Of a stretch of DNA of 15,876 bases, positions 1 to 15,876 are shown piece by piece. The notes under the pieces are model-generated. The model worked only from the letters and a program-made list of their open reading frames with translations, ran no database searches and was not told the origin of the DNA. Positions within the stretch are counted from its first letter, which is position 1; every line of letters begins with the position of its first letter. The translations under genes and the position numbers were made by a program. Where the stretch lies: positions 1 to 15,876 of IMG/VR virus record IMGVR_UViG_3300045988_117093; one strand, 5' to 3'. This stretch comes from a virus.

Positions 1-41
1 CGAGATCTACACTCTTTCCCTACACGACGCTCTTCCGATCT
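1..41. other. Illumina TruSeq universal adapter remnant (technical, not biological)
   Basis: CGAGATCTACACTCTTTCCCTACACGACGCTCTTCCGATCT matches the 3' 41 nt of the TruSeq universal adapter. Its exact reverse complement sits at 15836..15876. Confidence 0.97.
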
Positions 42-171
42 TTCGTTATTCCCAATGAGACCACGTCCCCCATTTGATTAAAAAGCACGAAAAAATACTT
101 GACAAATGAACGGGCGTGTGGTATTATAATCATAGAAACAAGGAAGCCGTATAAAATAAGGAGGGATAAAA
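42..171. repeat. Left inverted terminal repeat (ITR), about 130 bp
   Basis: The reverse complement of 15706..15835 aligns base for base. 42..110 (69 bp) is identical. 111..171 has 6 mismatches, at 111, 116, 131, 146, 149 and 165. Homology stops at the start codons. Confidence 0.95.
99..127 (+). promoter_or_regulatory. Sigma-A-type extended -10 promoter inside the left ITR
   Basis: TTGACA (99..104), 17-nt spacer, TGgTATTAT (119..127, continuing as TATTATAAT). It sits about 45 nt upstream of the 172 ATG. Confidence 0.75.
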
Positions 172-357
172 ATGAAGATTACAGAAAGAGAAAGATTAAG
201 AAGACGTGTATTAATTGAATATGCTAAACGTCATTATTTAGGATATGTTTATGGAGATGGTGACGAAAGAACAATACAAGCTAGTCATAAATGGTATAAT
301 TTATATAGGGAATATAAAAGAAGATACAACGACACGCCATTAAACAAAGACTATTAA
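172..357 (+). CDS. Hypothetical small basic protein (61 aa), the only plus-strand gene
   Basis: ATG is preceded by AAGGAGGG at 8-nt spacing, driven by the ITR promoter and followed by a terminator. I recognise no family. Confidence 0.7.
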   Translation: MKITERERLRRRVLIEYAKRHYLGYVYGDGDERTIQASHKWYNLYREYKRRYNDTPLNKDY

Positions 358-2002: not shown

Positions 2003-2710
2003 TCACCAAACTTGTAAAAACAAATCTCGGCAAGCTTCTACAAGCTCTCTATTGATATTTTGTATTTGCTCGCGATATTCTTCAATTGCTTCACTTGTTG
2101 ATTTTCCTCTTAATCCTATCTCTTTCGTGTCTCTGTCTCTTTTGCTGTCTTTGTTGTCATTTCCTGTGTGGTCGTTTTTTGCGGTTGTAGTCGTGTTATT
2201 GACAGTTTCGCCTCTGCTCATAGCGCTCGCGTAATCTTGCGTGGCTACGGTAACTTGTGGGTTATCGCTATCAATATTTTGGTAGTTTTGGTTGTTTTTT
2301 ACTTCGCTCGTTCCTGCATCTGTTGCTTTTGTTGTTGTTTTTTCGTTTCCTTTTTCTGCTTCTGTGATTGTTATATTTACATTTGTAAAAGGGTTATCGT
2401 CTTGAATTGCATCATACAATTTTGCATAATATGGTATTAATTCATGCATTTTTGCCATGAAGGCAGTTTTCCACATTCCTAAAGTTTCAAAACCTATATA
2501 ATTATTCCAGTATCTAAGTAAAAAATATGTCTTAAAGGTATACAGGTCTTTTCCGTCCTCTGAATAAAATGGAAAATCAAAGTCAAAAAAATTCCCCTGT
2601 GTTTTGTCGATAATTCTTTGTACGGATAAGTCCATGCTCCATAGTTCTTGAGGTGGTATAAAGCTTTCACAAATTTCTTTAATAGTCGTTGTATATTTAC
2701 TCAATCTCAT
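2003..2710 (-). CDS. Lower collar protein, phi29 gp11-like (235 aa)
   Basis: FDFPFYSEDGK...IPYYAKLY and the C-terminal EYREQIQNINRELVEACRDLFLQVW resemble gp11 (DDFPFYDD...MPYYKQLY...LFMLVY). The gene sits after the portal gene. I prefer ATG 2710 (upstream AAAGGAAAAGAGGGTG, overlapping the portal stop) over the ORF-track ATG 2755, which has no RBS. Confidence 0.75.
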   Translation of the reverse strand: MRLSKYTTTIKEICESFIPPQELWSMDLSVQRIIDKTQGNFFDFDFPFYSEDGKDLYTFKTYFLLRYWNNYIGFETLGMWKTAFMAKMHELIPYYAKLYDAIQDDNPFTNVNITITEAEKGNEKTTTKATDAGTSEVKNNQNYQNIDSDNPQVTVATQDYASAMSRGETVNNTTTTAKNDHTGNDNKDSKRDRDTKEIGLRGKSTSEAIEEYREQIQNINRELVEACRDLFLQVW

Positions 2711-3596
2711 CACCCTCTTTTCCTTTTTGCATATATTTGTCTGGGATATATCCATTTAACATGGTAGGCAATTCACTATTGAAATCAACTGTCACATTTA
2801 GACCCCATAAGTCATTGATAGCATTTGCACATCTTCTTCTTAACGTCAGTCCTACGTTTCGATTTGCTTCTACCTGCCCGTTGTTTCCAGCCGTTTCACC
2901 CGTCACAAGACGTTCACCCTTTTCTACAGGGTTACTTTCATACCCTAAAGATGTTAATACTTGTGACCATAAATCTCTTAATTCCTGTTCGCATTTGTCC
3001 ACAATGTAAGGTGCGCCCAGGTCCAGTGCTTTGATGTCTTTCAAGTTTAATGAATCGGAAACTTTTAGAACAGGTAAATAATTATCATACATTTCCCCCA
3101 ATATTTCAAAGGATATTTTTTCATTATCGGAAGAAGAAAGCGCAACAGGTGTACGCTGTGCATACATATTAATCCCTTTTGTATTCCAAGTATTAGCCAT
3201 AGCATCAGCGTACATTAAAGCTTTGTAGTAGTACGGCATTGTTGAGTAGTTGCTCCATAAAATACAGCTATTTTCTTTTCCATATTCCTCTATATAACCG
3301 TTAGCTGTGTAAGCAATTCTATCTTGTGGTATATTGTAAATATCGGGCAACCCCGATAATGCAACTTTCATAAAAGCGTACCCTGCGATATCATCTTTGA
3401 TGAATACACCAAGTCCATGCCAAAATAGTGTTTGTTCAATGTACATTGGTAGAATTTCTTTAGGCAAATCATTCCATGTGTACCTATTTACAAATATGTC
3501 AAAAATATCGTAAAAGAAGATACTCTTAATTGTTTCAAAATCACTACTTTTCTTTTTATTGACATTTCGTTCAAAAATTCGCAATGGGTTTCTCAT
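2697..3596 (-). CDS. Portal / upper collar connector, phi29 gp10-like (299 aa)
   Basis: YTWNDLPKEILPMYIEQTLFWHGLGVF, NMYAQRTPVAL, APYIVDKCEQELRDLWSQVLTSLGY..EKGERLVTGE and INDLWGLNVTVDF parallel the gp10 blocks (FEWENLPPTINP.., NAQKTPVLI, APYVVDKL..EKKERMVTDE, INELYGLNVKVKF). Confidence 0.9.
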   Translation of the reverse strand: MRNPLRIFERNVNKKKSSDFETIKSIFFYDIFDIFVNRYTWNDLPKEILPMYIEQTLFWHGLGVFIKDDIAGYAFMKVALSGLPDIYNIPQDRIAYTANGYIEEYGKENSCILWSNYSTMPYYYKALMYADAMANTWNTKGINMYAQRTPVALSSSDNEKISFEILGEMYDNYLPVLKVSDSLNLKDIKALDLGAPYIVDKCEQELRDLWSQVLTSLGYESNPVEKGERLVTGETAGNNGQVEANRNVGLTLRRRCANAINDLWGLNVTVDFNSELPTMLNGYIPDKYMQKGKEGDEIE

Positions 3597-7890: not shown

Positions 7891-7930
7891 AAAATGTTTC
7901 ACGTGAAACATTTTTTGTTCCACGTGAATA
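7891..7930. promoter_or_regulatory. Palindromic motif locus d: perfect 24-bp palindrome plus a degenerate second CACGTG site
   Basis: AAAATGTTTCACGTGAAACATTTT (7891..7914) and GTTCCACGTGAATA (CACGTG at 7921..7926), with centres 21 bp apart. Both lie in the 60-bp gap between the endolysin stop and the tail hydrolase RBS. Confidence 0.6.
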
Positions 7931-7934
7931 ATCA

Positions 7935-8927: not shown

Positions 8928-9152
8928 TTAATCCTCCTTTTTCTGTTCAAATGTATCACAAATGCGCTGTAACGCAAGTGTGTTATTATTCACTGCTTCT
9001 GTAATGTCTGACATTTCTTGCTTGTGTGACTCGTTTAGTTTATCCATGCGTGCGTCATTCTTATCTTCTCGATATTTCACATACCACATAGACGCAATTG
9101 CTACAACTGTAGGCAGTCCCAACGTGTTAATAGCTGCCATGATTTCTTGCAT
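8928..9152 (-). CDS. Holin, BhlA/UviB-like (74 aa; one N-terminal TM plus a charged coiled tail)
   Basis: TM segment LGLPTVVAIASMWYV is followed by KYREDKNDARMDKLNESHKQ. The gene lies immediately upstream of the endolysin and is translationally coupled to it, with RBS GGAGG 7 nt upstream. Confidence 0.6.
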   Translation of the reverse strand: MQEIMAAINTLGLPTVVAIASMWYVKYREDKNDARMDKLNESHKQEMSDITEAVNNNTLALQRICDTFEQKKED

Positions 9153-9172
9153 GATACCACCTCCTTTTTTCT

Positions 9173-9201
9173 ATCATAACACAAATAGAATTATTTGTAA
9201 A
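9173..9201 (-). promoter_or_regulatory. Candidate late (lysis plus structural operon) promoter
   Basis: On the minus strand: TTTACA (9196..9201), 17-nt spacer, TGtTATGAT (-10 at 9173..9178). The predicted start near 9166 leaves only ~2 nt before the holin SD, which lowers confidence. Confidence 0.45.
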
Positions 9202-9202
9202 T

Positions 9203-9353
9203 AAAAAATGTTTCACGTGAAACACTATCACGTGAAACATATTGTACGTTACAAAATAATCAATGCAAAGGGAACGCAACGCCAAAAATTGATATCAGAC
9301 TACTTGTCTATGTGCGTGTATATCAATTACAATGCCTGTATTATTTTGGGTAC
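9203..9353 (-). ncRNA. Candidate ~150-nt structured small RNA (possible pRNA analogue); hypothesis only
   Basis: It has a consensus promoter upstream and a predicted start at G 9353. A 5'/3' closing helix is formed by 9340..9348 with 9252..9260 (9 bp) plus GUAC 9350..9353 with 9244..9247. An inner hairpin pairs 9320..9327 with 9288..9295. A palindrome hairpin plus U6 sits at the 3' end. The region has no ORF. Confidence 0.3.
9209..9240. promoter_or_regulatory. Palindromic motif locus c: full site plus adjacent half site
   Basis: TGTTTCACGTGAAACA (9209..9224) and ctatCACGTGAAACAT (9229..9240), with centres 15 bp apart. The locus lies directly upstream of the -35 at 9196..9201. On the minus strand the full site is followed by T6 (9203..9208). 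Confidence 0.6.
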
Positions 9354-9359
9354 GATATT

Positions 9360-9388
9360 ATGATAACATATATCATTTGAAATGTCAA
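9360..9388 (-). promoter_or_regulatory. Near-consensus extended -10 promoter in the ATPase-holin gap
   Basis: On the minus strand: TTGACA (9383..9388), 17-nt spacer, TGtTATCATAAT (-10 at 9360..9365). The architecture is nearly identical to the ITR promoters. Confidence 0.65.
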
Positions 9389-9406
9389 TGTTTCACGTGA
9401 AACATT
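9387..9406. promoter_or_regulatory. Palindromic motif locus b: perfect 20-bp palindrome
   Basis: AATGTTTCACGTGAAACATT overlaps the ATPase stop codon (9405..9407) at one end and the -35 hexamer (9383..9388) at the other. Confidence 0.6.
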
Positions 9407-10448
9407 AAAAAGATATCACATCAAATATCATGTTCTTACACTCTAAATTTTCAAACAGAAGTAACCCTCTGTTAAAATATTCTCGTAACATTGTAACAAT
9501 GTAATGCGTTGAATTGACACGAATAGCCGTATTATCTATGACATCAGTTTTTGTAAAGCATATCCTTGTTGGAAAACTATCGTCCGCCCCTGTTGCCACA
9601 TATAGGCAAACATCATATTTTCTGACATTATATAAATTATCATTATATTTAATTGTACAAATATAACGAGACTGCCCACTTGGTTTACCAATCAAACATT
9701 CGTTATCGTTTAGATATTTGTTTTCGCTCGCATATTCGTTATATTCAGCACCTCGAAAAGCTCTTGCAATAGCACTTTCTTTATACGCGGTTGAAGCGCT
9801 TTCATTATAAGTTCTTTCAAACACCCAACCATCACCACGTAAAAATTTGGTGTCTCTCTTTAACATTTTATTGATACCAAACACGCTATAATAAGGGTTT
9901 AACAAAGATACTGTATTCGATGCCATATATAGCATAACTCTCCTGTGCTGTTTACCGTGACCCGAACTAATTGTAGTGAGCAACGATAATAATTTGTTTA
10001 CTTCGTTTGGTAAATATATATTATCTTCATCTTGGTATTCGTCAAAAAACACAGAACGAATATTGACAAACAACCCACGCATTTTTTTATACTTTCTCGC
10101 TACGGACAAAGCTAAGCAATAACCACACGGCTCTTCATTGATAAATAACTGTACTAATGCACCTCGCATCAAGCTTTTTTCAGTCATAACATAACCGTCA
10201 AATTTTTCCGCTATATCCCCAAAATAGGTATCAGCACAGTTTTTCATATCAACAACATTACGATATAAATAAATGAACTGATTTTCCGGTCTGTATTTAT
10301 CTTTTAAAAAGTCAGAAACTTGCCGACACTTAATAGAATAACTTTTACCCGCTGTTCTGTTGCCGTCCACAATAAAAATGTCGGGTGTATTCCCGTATTT
10401 ATCTTTCATAGTTAATAATCTCTCACAGTGATAATAACCATCATTCAT
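9405..10448 (-). CDS. DNA encapsidation (packaging) ATPase, phi29 gp16-like (347 aa)
   Basis: Walker A GNRTAGKSY, QFIYLYRN, Walker B SVFFDEY, YLPNEVNKLLSLLTTI and NTVSLLNPYY parallel gp16 (GARGIGKSY, QFIYVRRY, TIVFDEF, YIPNEVSALLNLMDTV, NAVSVVNPYF). I chose ATG 10448 (GGAGGTG 9 nt upstream). The ORF-track start at 10478 lies inside the palindrome half site. Confidence 0.92.
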   Translation of the reverse strand: MNDGYYHCERLLTMKDKYGNTPDIFIVDGNRTAGKSYSIKCRQVSDFLKDKYRPENQFIYLYRNVVDMKNCADTYFGDIAEKFDGYVMTEKSLMRGALVQLFINEEPCGYCLALSVARKYKKMRGLFVNIRSVFFDEYQDEDNIYLPNEVNKLLSLLTTISSGHGKQHRRVMLYMASNTVSLLNPYYSVFGINKMLKRDTKFLRGDGWVFERTYNESASTAYKESAIARAFRGAEYNEYASENKYLNDNECLIGKPSGQSRYICTIKYNDNLYNVRKYDVCLYVATGADDSFPTRICFTKTDVIDNTAIRVNSTHYIVTMLREYFNRGLLLFENLECKNMIFDVISF

Positions 10449-10465
10449 AATTTTAGCACCTCCAT

Positions 10466-10478
10466 TCACGTGAAACAT
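10466..10478. promoter_or_regulatory. Palindromic motif locus a: half site
   Basis: attCACGTGAAACATTT has a perfect right half. It lies between the early terminator and the ATPase RBS. Confidence 0.45.
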
Positions 10479-10488
10479 TTATTTTATA

Positions 10489-10515
10489 AAAGAGGTGGCA
10501 TATAGCCACCCCTTT
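10489..10515 (-). terminator. Intrinsic terminator at the end of the early (replication) operon
   Basis: The minus-strand RNA AGGGGUGGC-UAUAU-GCCACCUCU gives 9 bp including one G-U, followed by UUUAUAAAAU. On the plus strand the same position is an A-C mismatch, so the hairpin is oriented for minus-strand transcription. Confidence 0.7.
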
Positions 10516-10554
10516 AGAAGAAGAGAATTAAAATGGTATTCTCACGACATCATT

Positions 10555-11229: not shown

Positions 11230-11297
11230 CTTGTTTTCCTCCTTTTTTCTGTGTTCTGTGAGTGTGAATGCAATGTAATATGTTTTATTACATTATT

Positions 11298-11326
11298 ATA
11301 ATATCACATTCATAAAATAATTGCAA
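11298..11326 (-). promoter_or_regulatory. Extended -10 promoter (copy B of the duplicated promoter)
   Basis: On the minus strand: TTGCAA (11321..11326), 17-nt spacer, TGaTATTATAAT (-10 at 11298..11303). Confidence 0.65.
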
Positions 11327-11329
11327 GTA

Positions 11330-11569
11330 TTATTTTATAACTTTTCTGCTATCTTTTGATTGGCATTGCATAACACCAAACTTGCTATTAATTATTCTTT
11401 TATACTGTTCTTTTGTTAAATTGCTCATGGTTGCCCCTCCAACCCAATAACAAAAACTCATAGGGTACTCACTATTCATTTCTTGATTGCTCAATCCTGT
11501 TAAATGTATGCTATCAGTATCCGCATAGCATAATCTTTCTTTATTTTCTAAAGTATCAATCATAAACAC
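11330..11569 (-). CDS. Open, RBS-equipped fragment paralogous to the DNA polymerase C-terminus (79 aa; possibly a gene remnant)
   Basis: NKERLCYADTDSIHLTGLSNQEMNSEYPMSFCYWVGGAT aligns with polymerase NKERFCYADTDSIHLIGLEDAEMVIEHPTNFCCWGCEAT, then MSNLTKEQY with MSKSAKEQF. The KTY-containing segment is deleted in frame. Start is GTG 11569 (6 nt after GGAGG) or ATG 11563. Confidence 0.6.
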   Translation of the reverse strand: MFMIDTLENKERLCYADTDSIHLTGLSNQEMNSEYPMSFCYWVGGATMSNLTKEQYKRIINSKFGVMQCQSKDSRKVIK

Positions 11570-11637
11570 CTTTTTCCTCCTTTTTTACTTACTTAACTGT
11601 GAATTGCAACGTAATATGTTTTATTTATTACATTATT

Positions 11638-11666
11638 ATAATAACACATTCGTAATATAATTGAAA
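11638..11666 (-). promoter_or_regulatory. Extended -10 promoter (copy A), directly after the polymerase stop codon
   Basis: On the minus strand: TTTCAA (11661..11666), 17-nt spacer, TGtTATTATAAT (-10 at 11638..11643). Confidence 0.6.
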
Positions 11667-11669
11667 GTA

Positions 11670-13556
11670 TTATATTGTAACTTTTTTATCTTTTTGCTGA
11701 TGTATCTTAAATGTTTTATTCCTAAGCACAATACCTCCTTTTACTCGCTCTGACTTTAAATTACAGTTATACAATTCCAAATCTGTAGTTAATTCTTTTA
11801 TGTCACGGTTTTCTGCAATGAACTGTTCTTTCGCTGATTTGCTCATGCCACACGCTTTAATATCTAAATATGGTGTATCAACTGACTCTCTGTTCTCGGC
11901 TACAATATGTTCTGCATATGTTTTTTGTCGCTCATAATATGCAAAGTCAAATGTTGCCTCGCAACCCCAACAGCAAAAATTTGTAGGATGCTCAATAACC
12001 ATTTCCGCATCTTCCAAACCAATCAAATGAATACTATCAGTATCAGCGTAGCAAAATCTTTCTTTATTTGCTAATGCGTGCCTTATCGTAAAATTCATAG
12101 CGTATGATGTAATGGCAGAACCTATCGGAATATATCCAACTCCTTTTTCATGCTCCTCGTGCAAGATAAATCTAACAACACCGTTTTCATCAAGATATGG
12201 CTCTTTATAAGATGAGTTATCAGACATTGCAAATTTTCCATAAAGGTTATTCAAAAACAGTTTTGCCAACTGACGAGAAAAGCCTTTACTGTTCTTTTTC
12301 ATTTCTGCATACTTATCAATATAAGCATCAAAAAATCCATCACGGGCATAAAACCATACATAATCATGTATCTCTAAATCATAAATTTCATAAGTATCAT
12401 TAAATAATTCCCAGTCTGTGCAAGTCATGGTCAATGTTACTTTTGTGTCGCACATATTACCGTCAGCGTCTCTATAATATCTATAATATTGCCCTTTGTA
12501 TCTAACATCAGATGTATATAAATTTTCGTTCGACTTGTACAATGCACTATGTCTAATATGCACCCAGGGAAAAGCGTTCTCTTTTACTCTAAATCTACAA
12601 GTAAAGCGGATAAAATAATACTTATTATCTGCTTTTACTAAATCTATAGGTGGCGCTCCTTTGTGATATTCTCCATGTCCAAATGGGTATTTATTGCCAC
12701 TCATGCTATGCATCATAGACGGATAAAGAGAATTTACATCATATACAAGACCCTCTCCGACTACAATATGTGCAAATTTTGGGTTCAGATAGCACCACCC
12801 ACCGTGATACGATTTATGAACATAATCCCAAATGTTCCATACACCCGTCACATCTTCGTCTAAATAATCCTCTCTTAAATCAGGGAACAATCTTTTATAA
12901 TCCTTTAAATCATAATCTGCTTTAAATTCTGATAAACAACAAGAGCCGATTGTGAGCTTTTGATGTCCCGCATCAAACATCATTTCAAGAGCTTCTTTTA
13001 ATACTAGTACATCATTTTCAATATACTTTTTCTCTTCTTCCGTGATGTTACAATATGCATATCGCATACCTGTATAAACCATTTCTAACTTTTTATGCTT
13101 TGTCTTAAAAGATTTAGCTATGTTATTGAGTGATGATGGCATTAATTTCAACGAGTTTCGTATTTCGATAAAGTTCTTGTTCCATTTTAATTTTATCCAG
13201 TACCACGAACCCAAATCTGAAATACAAGTCTGAAAAGTCTTACTTCTCATTTCCTTATCTTTACAATGTACCCATTTCCAGTTCTCTTTTAATAAAAAAT
13301 CAACAATAAAAGAACCGTCAAAAGATAGATTATGAAAATATAATATATTGTTGCCTCCCATGGTTAAAAACCGATTTAAAAAGTCTCTAATCGAATGAGT
13401 AATTGTAACTGTTTCACTGTTATCATAAAGAGCAACGTCAGCGGCAGACCATACCTCTGTACAGTCTTGCTTTTTTCTTAATTGGTTTTCTAATTCCTCT
13501 CCCCACACGGTCGTCTCGAAATCGCAAGCCCAATATGTAACATTTTTCTTTTTCAT
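11670..13556 (-). CDS. Protein-primed family B DNA polymerase, phi29 gp2-like (628 aa)
   Basis: ExoI CDFETT, ExoII YFHNLSFDGSFI, ExoIII YIENDVLVLKEAL, motif A DVNSLYPSMM, motif B KLFLNNLYGKFA, motif C YADTDSIHL and KxY QKTYAEHI all closely parallel phi29 DNA polymerase. Confidence 0.97.
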   Translation of the reverse strand: MKKKNVTYWACDFETTVWGEELENQLRKKQDCTEVWSAADVALYDNSETVTITHSIRDFLNRFLTMGGNNILYFHNLSFDGSFIVDFLLKENWKWVHCKDKEMRSKTFQTCISDLGSWYWIKLKWNKNFIEIRNSLKLMPSSLNNIAKSFKTKHKKLEMVYTGMRYAYCNITEEEKKYIENDVLVLKEALEMMFDAGHQKLTIGSCCLSEFKADYDLKDYKRLFPDLREDYLDEDVTGVWNIWDYVHKSYHGGWCYLNPKFAHIVVGEGLVYDVNSLYPSMMHSMSGNKYPFGHGEYHKGAPPIDLVKADNKYYFIRFTCRFRVKENAFPWVHIRHSALYKSNENLYTSDVRYKGQYYRYYRDADGNMCDTKVTLTMTCTDWELFNDTYEIYDLEIHDYVWFYARDGFFDAYIDKYAEMKKNSKGFSRQLAKLFLNNLYGKFAMSDNSSYKEPYLDENGVVRFILHEEHEKGVGYIPIGSAITSYAMNFTIRHALANKERFCYADTDSIHLIGLEDAEMVIEHPTNFCCWGCEATFDFAYYERQKTYAEHIVAENRESVDTPYLDIKACGMSKSAKEQFIAENRDIKELTTDLELYNCNLKSERVKGGIVLRNKTFKIHQQKDKKVTI

Positions 13557-13558
13557 GA

Positions 13559-14251
13559 TTATTCTCTTTCTATAATATTATCTTGCATATTTATAAATTG
13601 TTGGAAATCCTCACTATTTTCAAAAAATTTCATTTTTTTAAGAATATTTGAAAAAACTGCATCAATCGTTGCTTTATCCATGTATGGCTCAGTTGGGAAT
13701 ACTTCGGGTGCATTTTTATATGTGTAGCCAAACAATGCTCGTTCTGTGTCAGTAGCAGTAGCCAGTAGTGCGTCTGTTTTCATTCTTAAATAATGTGCTG
13801 TAAATGGTACAAAACTATCTAAACTATCATACCACATATCAATATATAGGTCATAATCGGGTACTGGTGCAAAGTCACGTATTAGAACACCTGTGGATTT
13901 TAATTCTTTTAACCCTTTTAAAGTGGTAATATTATTTTGTCGAGCATAATCCTGTTCAAAAGGTACTAACGATGCAAAAACTCTGTTCAAAGCTAATACA
14001 TTTTTTCTTTCCTTTTCTGATTTAATAATAAGCTCGCCTGTTAATAAATTAACAACGGGTGCGTTTTCTTTAATCACTTTCGCTGTCTGTTTTTTAAGCT
14101 TTTCAATACTTGTCTTTTTCGGTACTTTTACTTTCTGTATCGCCTTGACTAGCACGCCTTGCTCGACCTGTCTTTGTACACGTCTTAAATAATTCTTATA
14201 CTCTTTATTGTATAATTTTTGTAATTCAGATACTTTCCTTTTTCTACTCAT
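13559..14251 (-). CDS. Putative terminal protein (230 aa)
   Basis: The gene lies immediately upstream of, and is coupled to, the protein-primed polymerase, as in phi29 genes 3 and 2. It has a very basic N-terminal third and a size in the TP range. I used ATG 14251 (AAAGGTGA upstream); the ORF-track start at 14257 is TTG. I recognise no sequence motif. Confidence 0.55.
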   Translation of the reverse strand: MSRKRKVSELQKLYNKEYKNYLRRVQRQVEQGVLVKAIQKVKVPKKTSIEKLKKQTAKVIKENAPVVNLLTGELIIKSEKERKNVLALNRVFASLVPFEQDYARQNNITTLKGLKELKSTGVLIRDFAPVPDYDLYIDMWYDSLDSFVPFTAHYLRMKTDALLATATDTERALFGYTYKNAPEVFPTEPYMDKATIDAVFSNILKKMKFFENSEDFQQFINMQDNIIERE

Positions 14252-14435
14252 AATCAATCACCTTTTTCAATAATAGACCATTAGGGACACGTGTATACTC
14301 GATATAATCTCCTGCGTGTATATCTAAATCTCGAATTGCTTCTTTTGGTATCATAACTCGTGCGGTATATCCGCCTGTTCCGCCTTTTGTAAACATTACT
14401 TTGTAACGCAATAATTGGTTTGTTAATTTTGCCAT
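14244..14435 (-). CDS. AbrB/SpoVT (MazE-like swapped-hairpin) DNA-binding protein (63 aa)
   Basis: ARVMIPKEAIRDLDIHAGDYIEYTRVPNGLLLKKV fits the SpoVT-AbrB consensus (v-IPkeir..l.i..GD.ie......g.i.l.k). It overlaps the TP start by 8 nt. Confidence 0.6.
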   Translation of the reverse strand: MAKLTNQLLRYKVMFTKGGTGGYTARVMIPKEAIRDLDIHAGDYIEYTRVPNGLLLKKVIDYE

Positions 14436-14449
14436 GTGTTTTTTCCTCC

Positions 14450-14917
14450 TTATAAAAGATTAAAGACTTTCCATGTGAATTGTGAAAAATGTTCAGCTAT
14501 ATATGATACAGAAGATAAGAAAAGATATAGTAAAAATGTTGCCATGATAACGACGGACAAAATGCCTAAGAAAGAGGATATCTTTTCTAGTTTAGTGTAT
14601 GGCTCTTTTTCTTCTTCTATAGGTGCGTGCCTTTTTATCCAGTCTATTTCACTTTCATGTAATGTTTCACGTGAAACCTTTTCTGTATAAAGATTGCTAG
14701 ACGTGTCTGTCTCTATATAGTCTTTAATTCCATCTGTCGGATTGACGTAGCTCTGTCCATCAAAACCCACATAAATGTTTTTATTAGTATACAAATTTTC
14801 TACCCAGTATGGTGGGTCAACGAATAAGGATATGTAGTTGTTTAGTGAATTTTCAGTATAGAAGTCGTGCAATTCTACCCCAAAATCTGTAATGTTATGC
14901 AATCTGTATTGAATCAT
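14450..14917 (-). CDS. Early membrane-anchored protein with a C-terminal TM helix (155 aa)
   Basis: Hydrophobic segment ISSFLGILSVVIMATFLLYLFLSSV near the C-terminus, with RBS AAGGAGGAAAAATAA. I recognise no family. Confidence 0.6.
   Translation of the reverse strand: MIQYRLHNITDFGVELHDFYTENSLNNYISLFVDPPYWVENLYTNKNIYVGFDGQSYVNPTDGIKDYIETDTSSNLYTEKVSRETLHESEIDWIKRHAPIEEEKEPYTKLEKISSFLGILSVVIMATFLLYLFLSSVSYIAEHFSQFTWKVFNLL
14661..14677. promoter_or_regulatory. Palindromic motif locus e, inside the membrane-protein CDS
   Basis: AATGTTTCACGTGAAAC encodes ..VSRET.. in the 155-aa protein. It is the only copy inside a coding region. Confidence 0.45.
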
Positions 14918-15139
14918 TTATTTTTCCTCCTTTAAATAATATCTTTTTTTCCAATCATAATATAAGGCTCTAATTTTTTTCTCTTCTTCACTGCGCTCCG
15001 TTTCAGTAAAACTCGATAACTCTAAAAACGCTAAAAGTCTACCTAAATTACTTGACATAGCTATAATTGCATTATCATACAAACCTATAGAAATGTCTAG
15101 TTTAAATCTTTCATACTCTTCATTATATTTCTCATTCAT
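14918..15139 (-). CDS. Hypothetical early protein, paralog 2 of a tandem pair (73 aa)
   Basis: MNEKYNEEYERFKLDISIGLYDNAII...LGRLLAFLELSSFTETERSEEEKKIRALYYDWKKRYYLKEEK aligns end to end with the upstream 78-aa protein. Confidence 0.7.
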   Translation of the reverse strand: MNEKYNEEYERFKLDISIGLYDNAIIAMSSNLGRLLAFLELSSFTETERSEEEKKIRALYYDWKKRYYLKEEK

Positions 15140-15368
15140 TTATTTTTTCCTCCTTTGAATAATATCTTTTTTCCCAACAATTACACAATTCACGCAATTT
15201 ATTTTCTTCATTATCTCTCTCGTCCTCTGTGAAGTCTGATAGCTCTAAAAAGGTAGATAACCTACCAATTTGTATAGCCACTGCTACTAAAGATTTATCG
15301 TATAAACCTAGCTCTATATCTTGTTTACATAATTCATACGCTATTTTATATTTCTCATTCATTATCAT
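15132..15368 (-). CDS. Hypothetical early protein, paralog 1 of a tandem pair (78 aa)
   Basis: Homologous to 14918..15139 at both protein and DNA level. GGAGG lies 7 nt upstream of ATG 15368. Confidence 0.7.
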   Translation of the reverse strand: MIMNEKYKIAYELCKQDIELGLYDKSLVAVAIQIGRLSTFLELSDFTEDERDNEENKLRELCNCWEKRYYSKEEKINE

Positions 15369-15705: not shown

Positions 15706-15835
15706 TTTTATTCCTCCTTATTTTATATGGTTTCCTTGTTTCTATAATTATAATACCACATGCCCATTCATTTGTCAAGTATTTTTTCGTGCTTTTTAAT
15801 CAAATGGGGGACGTGGTCTCATTGGGAATAACGAA
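15706..15835. repeat. Right inverted terminal repeat
   Basis: Reverse complement of 42..171, with 124 of 130 positions identical. Confidence 0.95.
15750..15778 (-). promoter_or_regulatory. Sigma-A-type extended -10 promoter inside the right ITR (main early promoter)
   Basis: Mirror image of 99..127: TTGACA (15773..15778), 17-nt spacer, TGgTATTAT (-10 at 15750..15755). Confidence 0.75.
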
Positions 15836-15876
15836 AGATCGGAAGAGCGTCGTGTAGGGAAAGAGTGTAGATCTCG
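15836..15876. other. Illumina TruSeq adapter remnant (reverse complement)
   Basis: AGATCGGAAGAGCGTCGTGTAGGGAAAGAGTGTAGATCTCG is the exact reverse complement of 1..41. Confidence 0.97.

Follow-up and report, generated by a model that had tools for sequence, protein, structure and literature searches.

A small RNA gene beside the Gp16-type ATPase gene of a phi29-like phage probably encodes a packaging RNA of divergent sequence

The non-coding gap that follows the packaging-ATPase gene in a phi29-like virus genome (IMG/VR record IMGVR_UViG_3300045988_117093, 15,876 nucleotides, analysed over its full length and referred to here as the window) is likely an independent small non-coding RNA gene, the counterpart of the prohead or packaging RNA (pRNA) of phi29. 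The gene has defined boundaries, evolves under purifying selection, folds into a conserved structure with two co-evolving loops and is linked to the ATPase gene in phages that carry Gp16-type ATPases and Gp10-type connectors. Sequence comparison makes it very probable that its product is a packaging RNA belonging to a new class of divergent sequence. An initial annotation had proposed a pRNA-like small RNA with paired ends at this place, and every sequence element that it listed was found at the position it gave. Its proposal is borne out by the fold, the boundaries, the covariation and the ATPase linkage, but not by a match to the Rfam pRNA family. Two pRNA hallmarks go beyond it, namely a three-way junction with its elements in phi29 order and a pair of co-evolving complementary loops.

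The window represents a whole phi29-like genome of 15.9 kb, bounded by inverted terminal repeats of 171 bp. Pfam searches matched Podovirus_Gp16, Phage_connector GP10, Phi29_MCP and the gp9 tail knob, as well as a protein-primed type B polymerase; the terminal repeats and this polymerase indicate protein-primed replication. The gene for the Gp16-type DNA-packaging ATPase occupies 9405..10448 on the minus strand (PF05894 Podovirus_Gp16, 116.8 bits; PHROG 2150). The start at 10478 given by the ORF finder was dropped in favour of ATG 10448, which has a GGAGG ribosome-binding site upstream. The Gp10-type head-tail connector gene (2697..3596, minus strand; PF05352 Phage_connector, 159.1 bits) encodes a protein with the N-terminus MRNPLRIFERNVNKKK, in which six of the first 15 residues are Arg or Lys; such a connector is the expected docking partner for a packaging RNA. 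The RNA is encoded in the same genome as both a Gp16-type ATPase and a Gp10-type connector, a combination expected of the pRNA class. The gap was described as the only long ORF-free stretch of the genome, which is not strictly so, since 11230..11669 holds only a 79-aa ORF, a duplicated DNA-polymerase fragment.

In the window, the predicted RNA is bracketed by a consensus promoter and a terminator. The near-consensus minus-strand promoter noted earlier was recovered by a promoter scan at 9388..9360 as TTGACA-17-TATCAT with TG (−35 TTGACA at 9388..9383, a 17-nt spacer, TG at 9368..9367 and −10 TATCAT at 9365..9360), and its 11/12 match ranks among the best of the genome. Among relatives the −35 box is invariant, the TG-n-TAT[CTA]AT motif is retained, and the spacer drifts in sequence while keeping a constant length. 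An equivalent promoter lies upstream of the RNA in the window's clade and in L080, L107, L108, L111, L164 and L165. The predicted +1, G 9353, is also the first base of the closing helix. The terminator-like hairpin had been described too modestly: a terminator scan places an intrinsic terminator on the minus strand at 9203..9240, with a 13-bp hairpin at 9240..9208 (9240..9228 pairing with 9220..9208) followed by the U tract TTTTT at 9207..9203. The hairpin consists of one and a half copies of a palindrome, and in other clades an unrelated canonical terminator occupies the same place after the RNA. From +1 to the U tract, the predicted transcript measures about 151 nt. Holin-endolysin, which form the following unit, have their own promoter outside the RNA (TTTACA-17-TATGAT plus TG, 9173..9201, minus strand, promoter scan); in relatives the hexamers of this promoter are conserved and its spacer is variable. 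An alternative promoter suggested for the region, TTTGCA-17-TACAAT (9269..9241), is not conserved, its −35 reading TTTGAT in most relatives and its −10 being split by 1-3-nt insertions in many.

Conservation follows the same boundaries. Within the window's clade, identity is 0.665 from the −10 box to +1, 0.925 in the 110-nt core and 0.56 in the 3-nt linker, so that a conserved block runs from the predicted +1 to the last base of the closing helix. The core value is a pairwise identity, for which third codon positions in the adjoining genes give 0.57-0.65. These boundaries bear on an alternative in which the structure acts in cis at the 3′ end of the ATPase mRNA, for example by stabilising it or marking it for processing, and does not exist as a separate RNA. 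Among CS229P-like phages the ATPase stop codon marks the beginning of the RNA, which leaves no room for an intergenic promoter, and none is visible; in the window, the terminator scan found no strong terminator between the ATPase gene and the RNA. Biogenesis is thus not uniform across the family. Against a cis-acting element, near-consensus promoters in the window's clade, L080, L108, L164 and HM2 are so positioned that +1 coincides with the opening base of the closing helix, a 195-aa gene intervenes between the ATPase gene and the RNA in L108, and co-evolving loops are not needed by a simple stabiliser. We regard this explanation as very unlikely.

The core of the independent RNA gene, 9244..9353 on the minus strand (110 nt), is the sole match of our covariance model R1 in the window (121 bits), and all its elements are given on that strand. 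Its two ends are joined by the closing (A) helix, whose 5′ strand (9340..9353) consists of P1, a bulged C and P2. P1 pairs GUAC 9353..9350 with 9247..9244, and P2 pairs CAAAAUAAU (9348..9340) with AUUAUUUUG (9260..9252) over 9 bp. The bulges are the single C 9349 on the 5′ strand and the 4-nt UAAC 9251..9248 on the 3′ strand; the latter measures 3-4 nt in the clades examined and is a 4-nt U-N-A-C in the window's and nearest clades. Toward the three-way junction, the inner A helix (9330..9338) pairs CAG 9338..9336 with UUG 9263..9261, GC 9335..9334 with GC 9266..9265 and G 9330 with C 9270. Counted over P1, P2 and P3, the bulged A helix comprises about 18 bp, and each of the three segments shows compensatory changes.

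Two arms emerge from the junction. Hairpin 1 (9287..9328), the equivalent of the phi29 C/E arm, has a 9-bp outer stem (9328..9320 with 9295..9287) that includes AUUGAUAU/AUAUCAAU, a 10-nt internal loop on its 5′ side (ACACGCACAU, 9319..9310), a 4-bp inner stem AGAC/GUCU (9309..9306 with 9300..9297) and the apical loop AAGUA (9305..9301). The internal loop contains ACGCA (9313..9317), a 'right-hand' loop element complementary to 9278..9274. The U-rich junction (9286..9284) and hairpin 2, the D-arm equivalent, follow within 9270..9286; the stem of hairpin 2 pairs GG 9283..9282 with CC 9272..9271, and its 9-nt loop CGUUGCGUU (9281..9273) contains UGCGU 9278..9274. The junction linkers are 5-6 nt long and the D stem is short, at 2-3 bp in the window's clade. 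Its GG/CC is invariant there and in the nearest relatives, and in other clades the stem has 3-5 bp that covary.

Thermodynamics alone does not show selection on this fold. The 151-nt transcript has a folding energy of −39.4 kcal/mol (z = −3.7 against shuffles), mostly due to the terminator, and the 110-nt core is no more stable than chance (z = −0.99). As the core z is not significant, folding energy was not used as evidence, and the case for selection on the fold is built on comparative data. Within the window's clade (78 distinct sequences), 8 pairs show double changes against 3.1 ± 0.9 after shuffling (0/500), and sliding the partners within the same alignment leaves 0-3. P1 changes from U-A to C-G with the U-G intermediate seen, and P2 from A-U to G-C or U-G; pair 9337/9262 is A-U in 21 sequences, G-C in 50 and G-U in 7, and never A-C. 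Three pairs of the AGAC/GUCU stem carry double changes within the clade. The initial annotation had named covariation in relatives as a check, and its GUAC/GUAC, 9-bp closing and AGAC/GUCU helices all pass with compensatory substitutions. Within the window's clade, its AUUGAUAU/AUAUCAAU hairpin shows either no change or only wobble changes, and compensatory support for it comes solely from the cross-clade alignment.

The cross-clade comparison spans ATPases that are only 58-63% identical, and the RNAs of these clades are all 110-112 nt long. In this alignment 95.1% of cells are paired, compared with 78.7% after shuffling and about 40% after sliding, and both sides have changed in 31 of 39 pairs; all nine pairs of the hairpin 1 outer stem covary. 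The CS229P-like clade, a second large one that resembles Clostridium phage CS229P (61 distinct RNAs), yields the same architecture from single-sequence folds. In a plain MAFFT alignment made without a structure model its RNAs are 95.2% paired, compared with 73.7% after shuffling, and 19 of 26 pairs show changes on both sides. Unaided single-sequence minimum-free-energy (MFE) folds recover the three-way junction in L107, L110, L164, L165 and many CS229P-like RNAs. Two competing pairings were set aside. The MFE fold of the window gave a different inner pairing of hairpin 1 and a small hairpin at 9277..9264, where the alignment supports AGAC/GUCU instead. RNAalifold, applied to the cross-clade MAFFT alignment, took the loop-loop helix over a poorly aligned C helix because pseudoknots cannot be drawn, and a covariance-model alignment resolved this. 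Taken over the alignments, compensatory changes support nearly every helix of the RNA.

This covariation also bears on whether the gap is only a DNA-level control region of operators, promoters and terminators, in which the RNA fold is incidental. The region does hold such signals. A 20-bp perfect palindrome, AATGTTTCACGTGAAACATT, at 9387..9406 abuts and overlaps the −35 box of the RNA promoter and is nearly invariant across 78 relatives; it is a dispersed element (7 genome matches against 0.14 expected), and three copies or half-copies of this operator-looking sequence lie in the gap, along with two promoters and one terminator. The unremarkable thermodynamics of the core would also fit. However, the strongest conservation lies between these signals and not in them, dozens of compensatory double substitutions keep helices up to 110 nt apart, and in the L080 clade the palindromes sit wholly outside the RNA gene. 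The covariation effectively refutes a purely DNA-level role, to which we assign only a marginal probability. The chance that the region encodes a small protein is next to negligible. Two ORFs of 51-52 codons overlap it, at 9208..9363 on the plus strand and 9127..9285 on the minus strand; both were rejected because, in many relatives, frameshifting indels (1, 2 and 3 nt) interrupt them at three sites. Neither has a ribosome-binding site, and substitutions track base pairs rather than codons.

The two loops of the RNA are themselves complementary. The helix ACGCA/UGCGU is absent from the covariance model, yet it is 98.7% paired across clades with all five pairs changed on both sides, and the CS229P-like RNAs likewise show covariation at all five. 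In every lineage the internal loop is complementary to the loop of hairpin 2, with at least 12 different loop-pair sequences. With seven loop types taken from fixed alignment columns and the other two (L164, L165) delimited by eye, the mean duplex energy is −5.6 kcal/mol for cognate loops and −0.4 for non-cognate ones, and the cognate sum was matched in 0 of 100,000 permutations. On the alignments, this covariation is proof of base-pairing, which would fit an intermolecular ring or an intramolecular pseudoknot alike. Two loops complementary in this way are a hallmark of pRNA, whose loop pairing forms a ring. Kissing-loop RNAs, such as retroviral dimerisation hairpins, likewise make short Watson-Crick loop-loop contacts in which both sides covary. 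Those are single self-complementary hairpins that form dimers, whereas in the present RNA the complementarity lies between two distinct loops of each molecule and makes head-to-tail rings possible, as in pRNA.

The RNA accompanies the ATPase gene over a wide range of phages. The gap-region DNA gave no match to GenBank phages, and relatives were therefore found through the ATPase protein. More than 170 of them in IMG/VR and GenBank carry the RNA beside the ATPase gene, with strong sequence divergence and the fold retained. Model R1 finds exactly one match per genome, including a non-training match in L108 (46 bits, E 2e-10), the genome in which the 195-aa gene separates the two. Distant relatives each have their own promoter and an unrelated terminator, and the neighbours beyond the RNA differ: a holin gene lies downstream in the window and a convergent polymerase gene in CS229P2. 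Among GenBank relatives with 36-39% ATPase identity, R1 and R2 gave only one marginal match, in MT835814 at the expected place (15 bits, E 0.06-0.1). The RNAs of MT835904, HM2 and CS229P2 were assigned by position, single-sequence folds and loop complementarity, and the CS229P lineage was then confirmed by its own 80 loci. In MT835854 (L161) the closing helix and hairpin 1 are present, with no confident assignment of the second arm. In the C. perfringens phage phiZP2 the Gp16 gene has only 31 nt downstream and no space for the RNA there, so the arrangement is not universal. The cultured relatives, CS229P on Clostridium symbiosum and HM2 on C. saccharoperbutylacetonicum, suggest that the hosts are gut Clostridia-type bacteria.

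Compared element by element, the RNA resembles the pRNA of phi29. Both belong to small protein-primed podoviruses with a Gp16 ATPase and a Gp10 connector, and both have a core of about 110-120 nt plus a 3′ extension. In each, a long bulged helix connects the 5′ end with the 3′ end, and the C/E arm precedes the D arm at a three-way junction where a U-rich linker separates the arms. The first arm runs from a stem through an internal loop of 9-10 nt on its 5′ strand to a second stem of 4 bp, capped by a loop of 5-6 nt, and the second is a simple hairpin; the internal and hairpin loops are complementary over 3-7 nt and co-evolve. The order of elements is that of the consensus of Rfam RF00044 (Phage_pRNA, '3WJ core of Phi29 bacteriophage pRNA'): bulged A helix, C helix, 9-nt CE loop on the 5′ side, 4-bp E helix, U-rich junction and D hairpin. 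There are also differences. The gene lies mid-genome directly after the ATPase gene, whereas that of phi29 lies at the left genome end behind an early promoter; the A helix has a 3-4-nt bulge on the 3′ strand and a single C on the 5′ strand, in contrast to a CCA bulge on the 5′ strand; the D stem has 2-5 bp and a loop of 5-10 nt, compared with 6 bp and 5 nt; and the hosts appear to be gut Clostridia-type bacteria rather than Bacillus.

No covariance model connects the two families. RF00044, an Rfam scan suggested in the initial annotation, gave no match in the window at its gathering threshold (100 bits) or even at E ≤ 10, while the control, phi29 201..318, scored 145.4 bits; conversely, R1 and R2 did not find the pRNA in phi29. 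Homology with pRNA is consequently not demonstrated, and the RNA stands outside the curated family as a structural, and probably functional, equivalent. Across the whole window no Rfam family scored above threshold, and the weak matches to OxyS, Thr_leader and ncr952 (9329..9443) are chance or terminator matches. Divergent Bacillus-phage pRNAs (GA-1, SF5, B103/M2 and the DLc1/B. cereus group, with twelve more reported in PMC12670572) were recognised by the same criteria as the present RNA. Their sequence drifts while secondary structure and loop complementarity persist. Infernal reaches all of them when seeded with phi29, GA1 or DLc1, whereas the present family is unreachable from RF00044.

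This lack of sequence or model similarity leaves some room for a conserved structured RNA with a role other than packaging, such as a late-gene regulator, a decoy or an anti-defence RNA, whose loops would form an intramolecular pseudoknot. The fold and loop pairing are proven as base-pairing and not as intermolecular contacts, and with a short D stem and 5-6-nt linkers, a contact within one molecule is not obviously excluded. We nevertheless consider such a role unlikely. Topology and size match pRNA element by element, the linkage to the Gp16 gene is tight across clades whose other neighbours differ, and the genome has no other pRNA candidate, though its ATPase family is known to need one.

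A packaging RNA suggests the following mode of action. The gene is predicted to be transcribed by a host sigma-A-type polymerase that would start at G 9353 and stop at the hairpin and U tract (9240..9203), giving a transcript of about 150 nt whose first 110 nt would be the functional domain. This domain would fold into the long bulged 5′/3′ helix and a three-way junction with two arms, one presenting a 10-nt internal loop on its 5′ side and the other a 9-nt end loop. As in phi29, ACGCA of one loop may pair with UGCGU of the other between neighbouring molecules, so that copies would assemble, hand in hand, as a ring seated on the empty head's connector. Docking of the Gp16-type ATPase, which pumps in the protein-primed genome, would then fall to the protruding 5′/3′ helix. 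The RNA would bind proheads and be required for packaging.

Besides pRNA, no RNA is known to be an integral part of a motor that packages viral DNA, and RNA nanotechnology makes heavy use of pRNA. In reviews dating up to 2024-2025 it is considered unique to phi29 and related Bacillus phages (PMC11476376, PMC5066667). A tentative reading of its evolution, and one we hold with less than even confidence, is that a ring-forming packaging RNA is an old component of the Gp16 motor that stayed linked to the ATPase gene and drifted past recognition. More than 170 genomes, from several lineages of phi29-like phages of gut Clostridia, would then carry a second class of pRNA, and in the CS229P-like lineage the RNA would derive from the 3′ part of the ATPase transcript and not from a promoter of its own. 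Owing to the gap in Rfam, such RNAs stay unannotated in phage genomes. With more than 100 natural sequence variants and a dozen natural loop-pair 'codes', the family offers material for comparative studies of structure, and cultured relatives for tests exist in CS229P1-3 on Clostridium symbiosum and in HM2. If phages that are abundant in the human gut and infect Clostridia-type hosts carry a structural equivalent of pRNA, its known distribution would grow, and its origin and necessity would become testable in new systems.

The window is a complete linear phage genome of 15,876 bp, bounded by 171-bp inverted terminal repeats (1..171 and 15706..15876; 96% complementary) and with nearly all of its genes on the minus strand. 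Profile searches identified a protein-primed type B DNA polymerase, a packaging ATPase (Podovirus_Gp16, PF05894, 116.8 bits), a connector (Gp10, PF05352, 159.1 bits), a capsid protein (Phi29_MCP), a gp9-type tail knob, a lower collar protein and lysis genes. On the basis of its termini and these predicted genes, the genome is that of a phi29-like podovirus. None of 50,697 GenBank phage records is related to it at the DNA level. Among deposited phages, its ATPase is closest to those of human faecal contigs MT8358xx and of Clostridium phages CS229P1-3 and HM2, at only 36-39% identity, and it is about 28% identical to those of the Bacillus phi29 group. Each terminal repeat carries a near-consensus promoter, TTGACA-17-TATTAT with TG, reading from the outside inward (99..127 plus, 15778..15750 minus). 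Two adjacent genes of 73 and 78 aa (14918..15368 minus) are paralogues, both starting MNEKY and with the motif FLELS.FTE.ER in common.

On the minus strand, a 252-nt gap separates the ATPase stop (9405) from the holin start (9152); in it, the initial annotation had proposed a promoter, an RNA closed by a helix and a terminator-like hairpin. The sequence elements described for all three are present. The promoter, TTGACA-17-TATCAT with an upstream TG (9388..9360 minus), had been called near-consensus and scores 11/12 in the promoter scan, among the best in the genome. Scans also recovered the terminator, a 13-bp stem followed by TTTTT (9240..9208 minus), and the next promoter, that of the holin (9201..9173 minus), while RNAfold reproduced the closing helices and the 9-bp hairpin stem drawn by hand. 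Two other statements did not hold: a proposed weaker overlapping promoter is not conserved in relatives, and the gap is not the only long ORF-free stretch, as 11230..11669 holds nothing but a duplicated polymerase fragment. Both small ORFs across the gap are ruled out by 1-3-nt indels at three sites in relatives. Folding energy gives z = -0.99 for the 110-nt core and z = -3.7 for the 151-nt transcript, the latter due mainly to the terminator; thermodynamic stability alone is thus no evidence for the RNA.

Conservation delimits the RNA closely. Relatives were fetched by ATPase protein, yielding 80 IMG/VR contigs with ATPases 88-99% identical and one at 58%, and the gap aligns end to end in 78 contigs at 83.5-99.6% identity. 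As mean pairwise identity, the -35 box is invariant (1.00), the promoter spacer stands at 0.74 without indels, the six bases from -10 to +1 at 0.665, the 110-nt core (9353..9244 minus) at 0.925 and the three bases past it at 0.56. ATPase codon positions 1, 2 and 3 give 0.92, 0.95 and 0.65, and holin third positions 0.57. By this pattern, selection acts on a unit running from the predicted transcription start to the last base of the closing helix. In one close relative, L069 (4042..4473), about 175 extra bases separate a first copy of the palindrome plus -35 segment from the complete RNA locus; upstream of the RNA promoter there has apparently been a local duplication or insertion.

The initial annotation had suggested looking for compensatory changes in relatives, and these were found. 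In a 79-sequence alignment, with the structure written from the helices it had drawn, eight pairs are changed on both sides, against 3.1±0.9 in shuffles (0/500 reach eight) and 0-3 with slid partners. The outer GUAC/GUAC helix replaces U-A with C-G in nine sequences, with one U-G intermediate, and one pair of the 9-bp helix occurs as A-U, G-C or U-G. Pair 9337/9262 is A-U in 21 sequences, G-C in 50 and G-U in seven, and never A-C. Two double changes convert the inner stem AGAC/GUCU to GAAC/GUUC in three sequences, which bears out the hand-drawn stem; the alternative offered by RNAfold is without support in this alignment.

The fold extends across clades (ATPases 58-63% identical). In the L080/L081 group, L105, L107/L109, L110 and L111, all contigs of relatives, an RNA of 110-112 nt immediately follows the ATPase gene; most of its sequence differs from that in the window, and GC content is 45-57% versus 35% in the window. 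Each of these RNAs has its own near-consensus promoter, with +1 at the first base of the closing helix, and an ordinary terminator of its own that bears no relation to the palindrome-based one of the window. From 34 of these sequences a covariance model (R1) was built; it gives exactly one match in the window (121 bits, 9244..9353 minus) and a single match in each relative, and also reaches an RNA outside the training set, that of L108 (46 bits, E 2e-10). In L108 an inserted 195-aa gene (2574..3161) parts the RNA from the ATPase gene. Since the L108 RNA keeps its own promoter and terminator despite this insertion, the RNA is, as judged from sequence, an autonomous unit. The inserted gene's product starts MLKKEIATQLFEHLCTHDWHGY, and similar N-termini come after the RNA in L107, L109 and L110. 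In a model-based alignment of 92 matches, which is fitted to the nested helices and therefore biased towards them, 95.1% of cells are paired versus 78.7% when shuffled and about 40% when slid, with 31/39 pairs changed on both sides.

A further helix, left out of the covariance model, joins the two hairpins. In every lineage the 10-nt internal loop of hairpin 1 (C/E-arm equivalent) is complementary to the loop of hairpin 2 (D-arm equivalent), with differing sequences: ACGCA/UGCGU in the window, GCGUUA with UAACGC or UGACGC in the L081 group, GAAUCAA/UUGAUUC in L105, CCCA/UGGG in L107, UCCA/UGGA in L110, GGAUA/UAUCC in L111 and GUACA/UGUAC in L108. Among the 92 matches this helix is 98.7% paired, with 5/5 pairs changed on both sides, and RNAalifold, working blind from a MAFFT alignment, chose it too. 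Across nine loop pairs, those of L164 and L165 being delimited by eye, mean duplex energy is -5.6 kcal/mol for cognate loops versus -0.4 for non-cognate ones, and 0/100,000 permutations match the cognate sum. By analogy, we infer that the loop pairing would be intermolecular.

A second large clade displays the same architecture. With the ATPase of Clostridium phage CS229P2 as query, 80 more contigs (66-97% identity) supplied 61 distinct RNAs, 111-116 nt long, with GUAUCU at the start and AGAUAU at the end; many of their single-sequence MFE folds give this architecture unaided. Their covariation was assessed on a plain MAFFT alignment of 24 RNAs, fitted to no structure. RNAalifold recovered the closing helices, inner stem and second hairpin, with 14/21 pairs compensated. 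When the loop-loop helix is added, 95.2% of cells pair versus 73.7% shuffled and 29-43% slid, and 19/26 pairs are changed on both sides, including 5/5 loop-loop pairs (AGCA/UGCU, AAGCA/UGCUU, UAGCA/UGCUA, UUGCA/UGCAG, ACGC/GCGU, CUGUA/UACAG). The P1 helix GUAUCU/AGAUAU is almost invariant here, unlike in the window's clade. In these contigs (L168-L247) the first base of the RNA lies about 0-5 nt past the ATPase stop (TAG|GTATCT) and no promoter is recognisable upstream; because of this arrangement, the RNA may be cut from the ATPase transcript by processing. An RNA of the shared architecture also follows the ATPase genes of Clostridium phage HM2 and contig MT835904, as recovered by MFE folds, with loop pairs GUAGU/ACUAC and GGGA/UCCC; the evidence for both is confined to position, fold and complementarity, because the covariance models reach neither. 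C. perfringens phage phiZP2 has no room for such an RNA after its ATPase gene.

The palindrome that the initial annotation read as terminator-like is one copy of a dispersed 16-20-bp element, (AA)TGTTTCACGTGAAACA(TT), with seven matches in the window versus 0.14 expected (sites 7893..7931, 9207..9239, 9387..9406, 10460..10479 and 14661..14680). The copies sit on the borders of transcription units, namely ahead of the ATPase ribosome-binding site, ahead of the RNA promoter, within the terminator of the RNA and past the endolysin gene. Two of the sites hold one and a half copies, which form a terminator-like hairpin of 13 bp. Distant relatives contain exact or near-exact copies (L080, with three upstream of the holin gene, L108, L110, MT835854, CS229P2), there separate from the RNA gene, and HM2 has a variant form. 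Lying outside the RNA core, the element is probably an independent regulatory site, with the appearance of an operator or an anti-termination target of a phage regulator. An early-region 63-aa protein (14244..14435 minus) with a MazE/AbrB-type DNA-binding domain (PF04014, 27.6 bits) is a candidate binder. The longest-ORF ATPase start, ATG 10478, falls within a palindrome half-site; the true start is almost certainly ATG 10448, 8 nt past GGAGG. Further upstream (~10520..10490), a G+C-rich hairpin followed by a T run resembles a terminator by eye and is absent from the terminator scan list; no promoter is evident. Elsewhere, a 79-aa ORF (11330..11569 minus) is a diverged partial copy of the DNA polymerase, with a 122-nt repeat 75% identical to 11953..12074. 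On either side of this ORF lies a 62-nt repeat (11284..11345 and 11624..11685, 90% identical to each other), each with a promoter-like TTG[CA]AA-17-TATTAT with TG. The region 11230..11690 has the look of a segmental duplication that took in the 3' part of the polymerase gene together with a promoter-bearing segment.

In its predicted fold, the RNA parallels phi29 packaging RNA (pRNA). In the consensus of Rfam family RF00044, the bulged A helix is followed by a C helix, a loop of 9 nt confined to the 5' side, an E helix of 4 bp capped by a 6-nt loop, a UUU junction and a D hairpin of 6 bp whose loop has 5 nt. The window RNA has the same elements in the same order and of similar size: after an ~18-bp bulged A helix come a stem of 9 bp, a 5'-side loop of 10 nt, a 4-bp stem capped by a 5-nt loop, a junction rich in U and a short hairpin whose loop has 9 nt. 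However, the two show no sequence or model similarity in either direction, and the Rfam scan that the initial annotation had proposed gave no RF00044 match in the window, whereas phi29 pRNA scores 145 bits. The gene for the window RNA follows that of the ATPase, whereas phi29 pRNA is encoded at the end of the genome. In place of a 5' CCA, the helix has a bulge of 3-4 nt on its 3' strand, which reads U-N-A-C in the clade of the window and those nearest to it, and the D stem is shorter. Because of these differences, RF00044 membership fails.

No description of a pRNA from Clostridium or gut phages turned up in full-text literature searches. A 2024 review of phi29-like phages holds that pRNA, as far as is known, is unique to phi29 and the Bacillus phages related to it, and places CS229P1 and HM2 in separate clusters with no RNA mentioned (PMC11476376); a 2016 pRNA review agrees on this uniqueness (PMC5066667). 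New pRNAs have been called from the structural features compared above together with gp10 and gp16 in one genome, and the 12 added in 2025 all came from Bacillus phages (PMC12670572). In gene content, predicted fold and loop complementarity, the window RNA matches the pRNA functional class, and by analogy it would bind the prohead and act in packaging.
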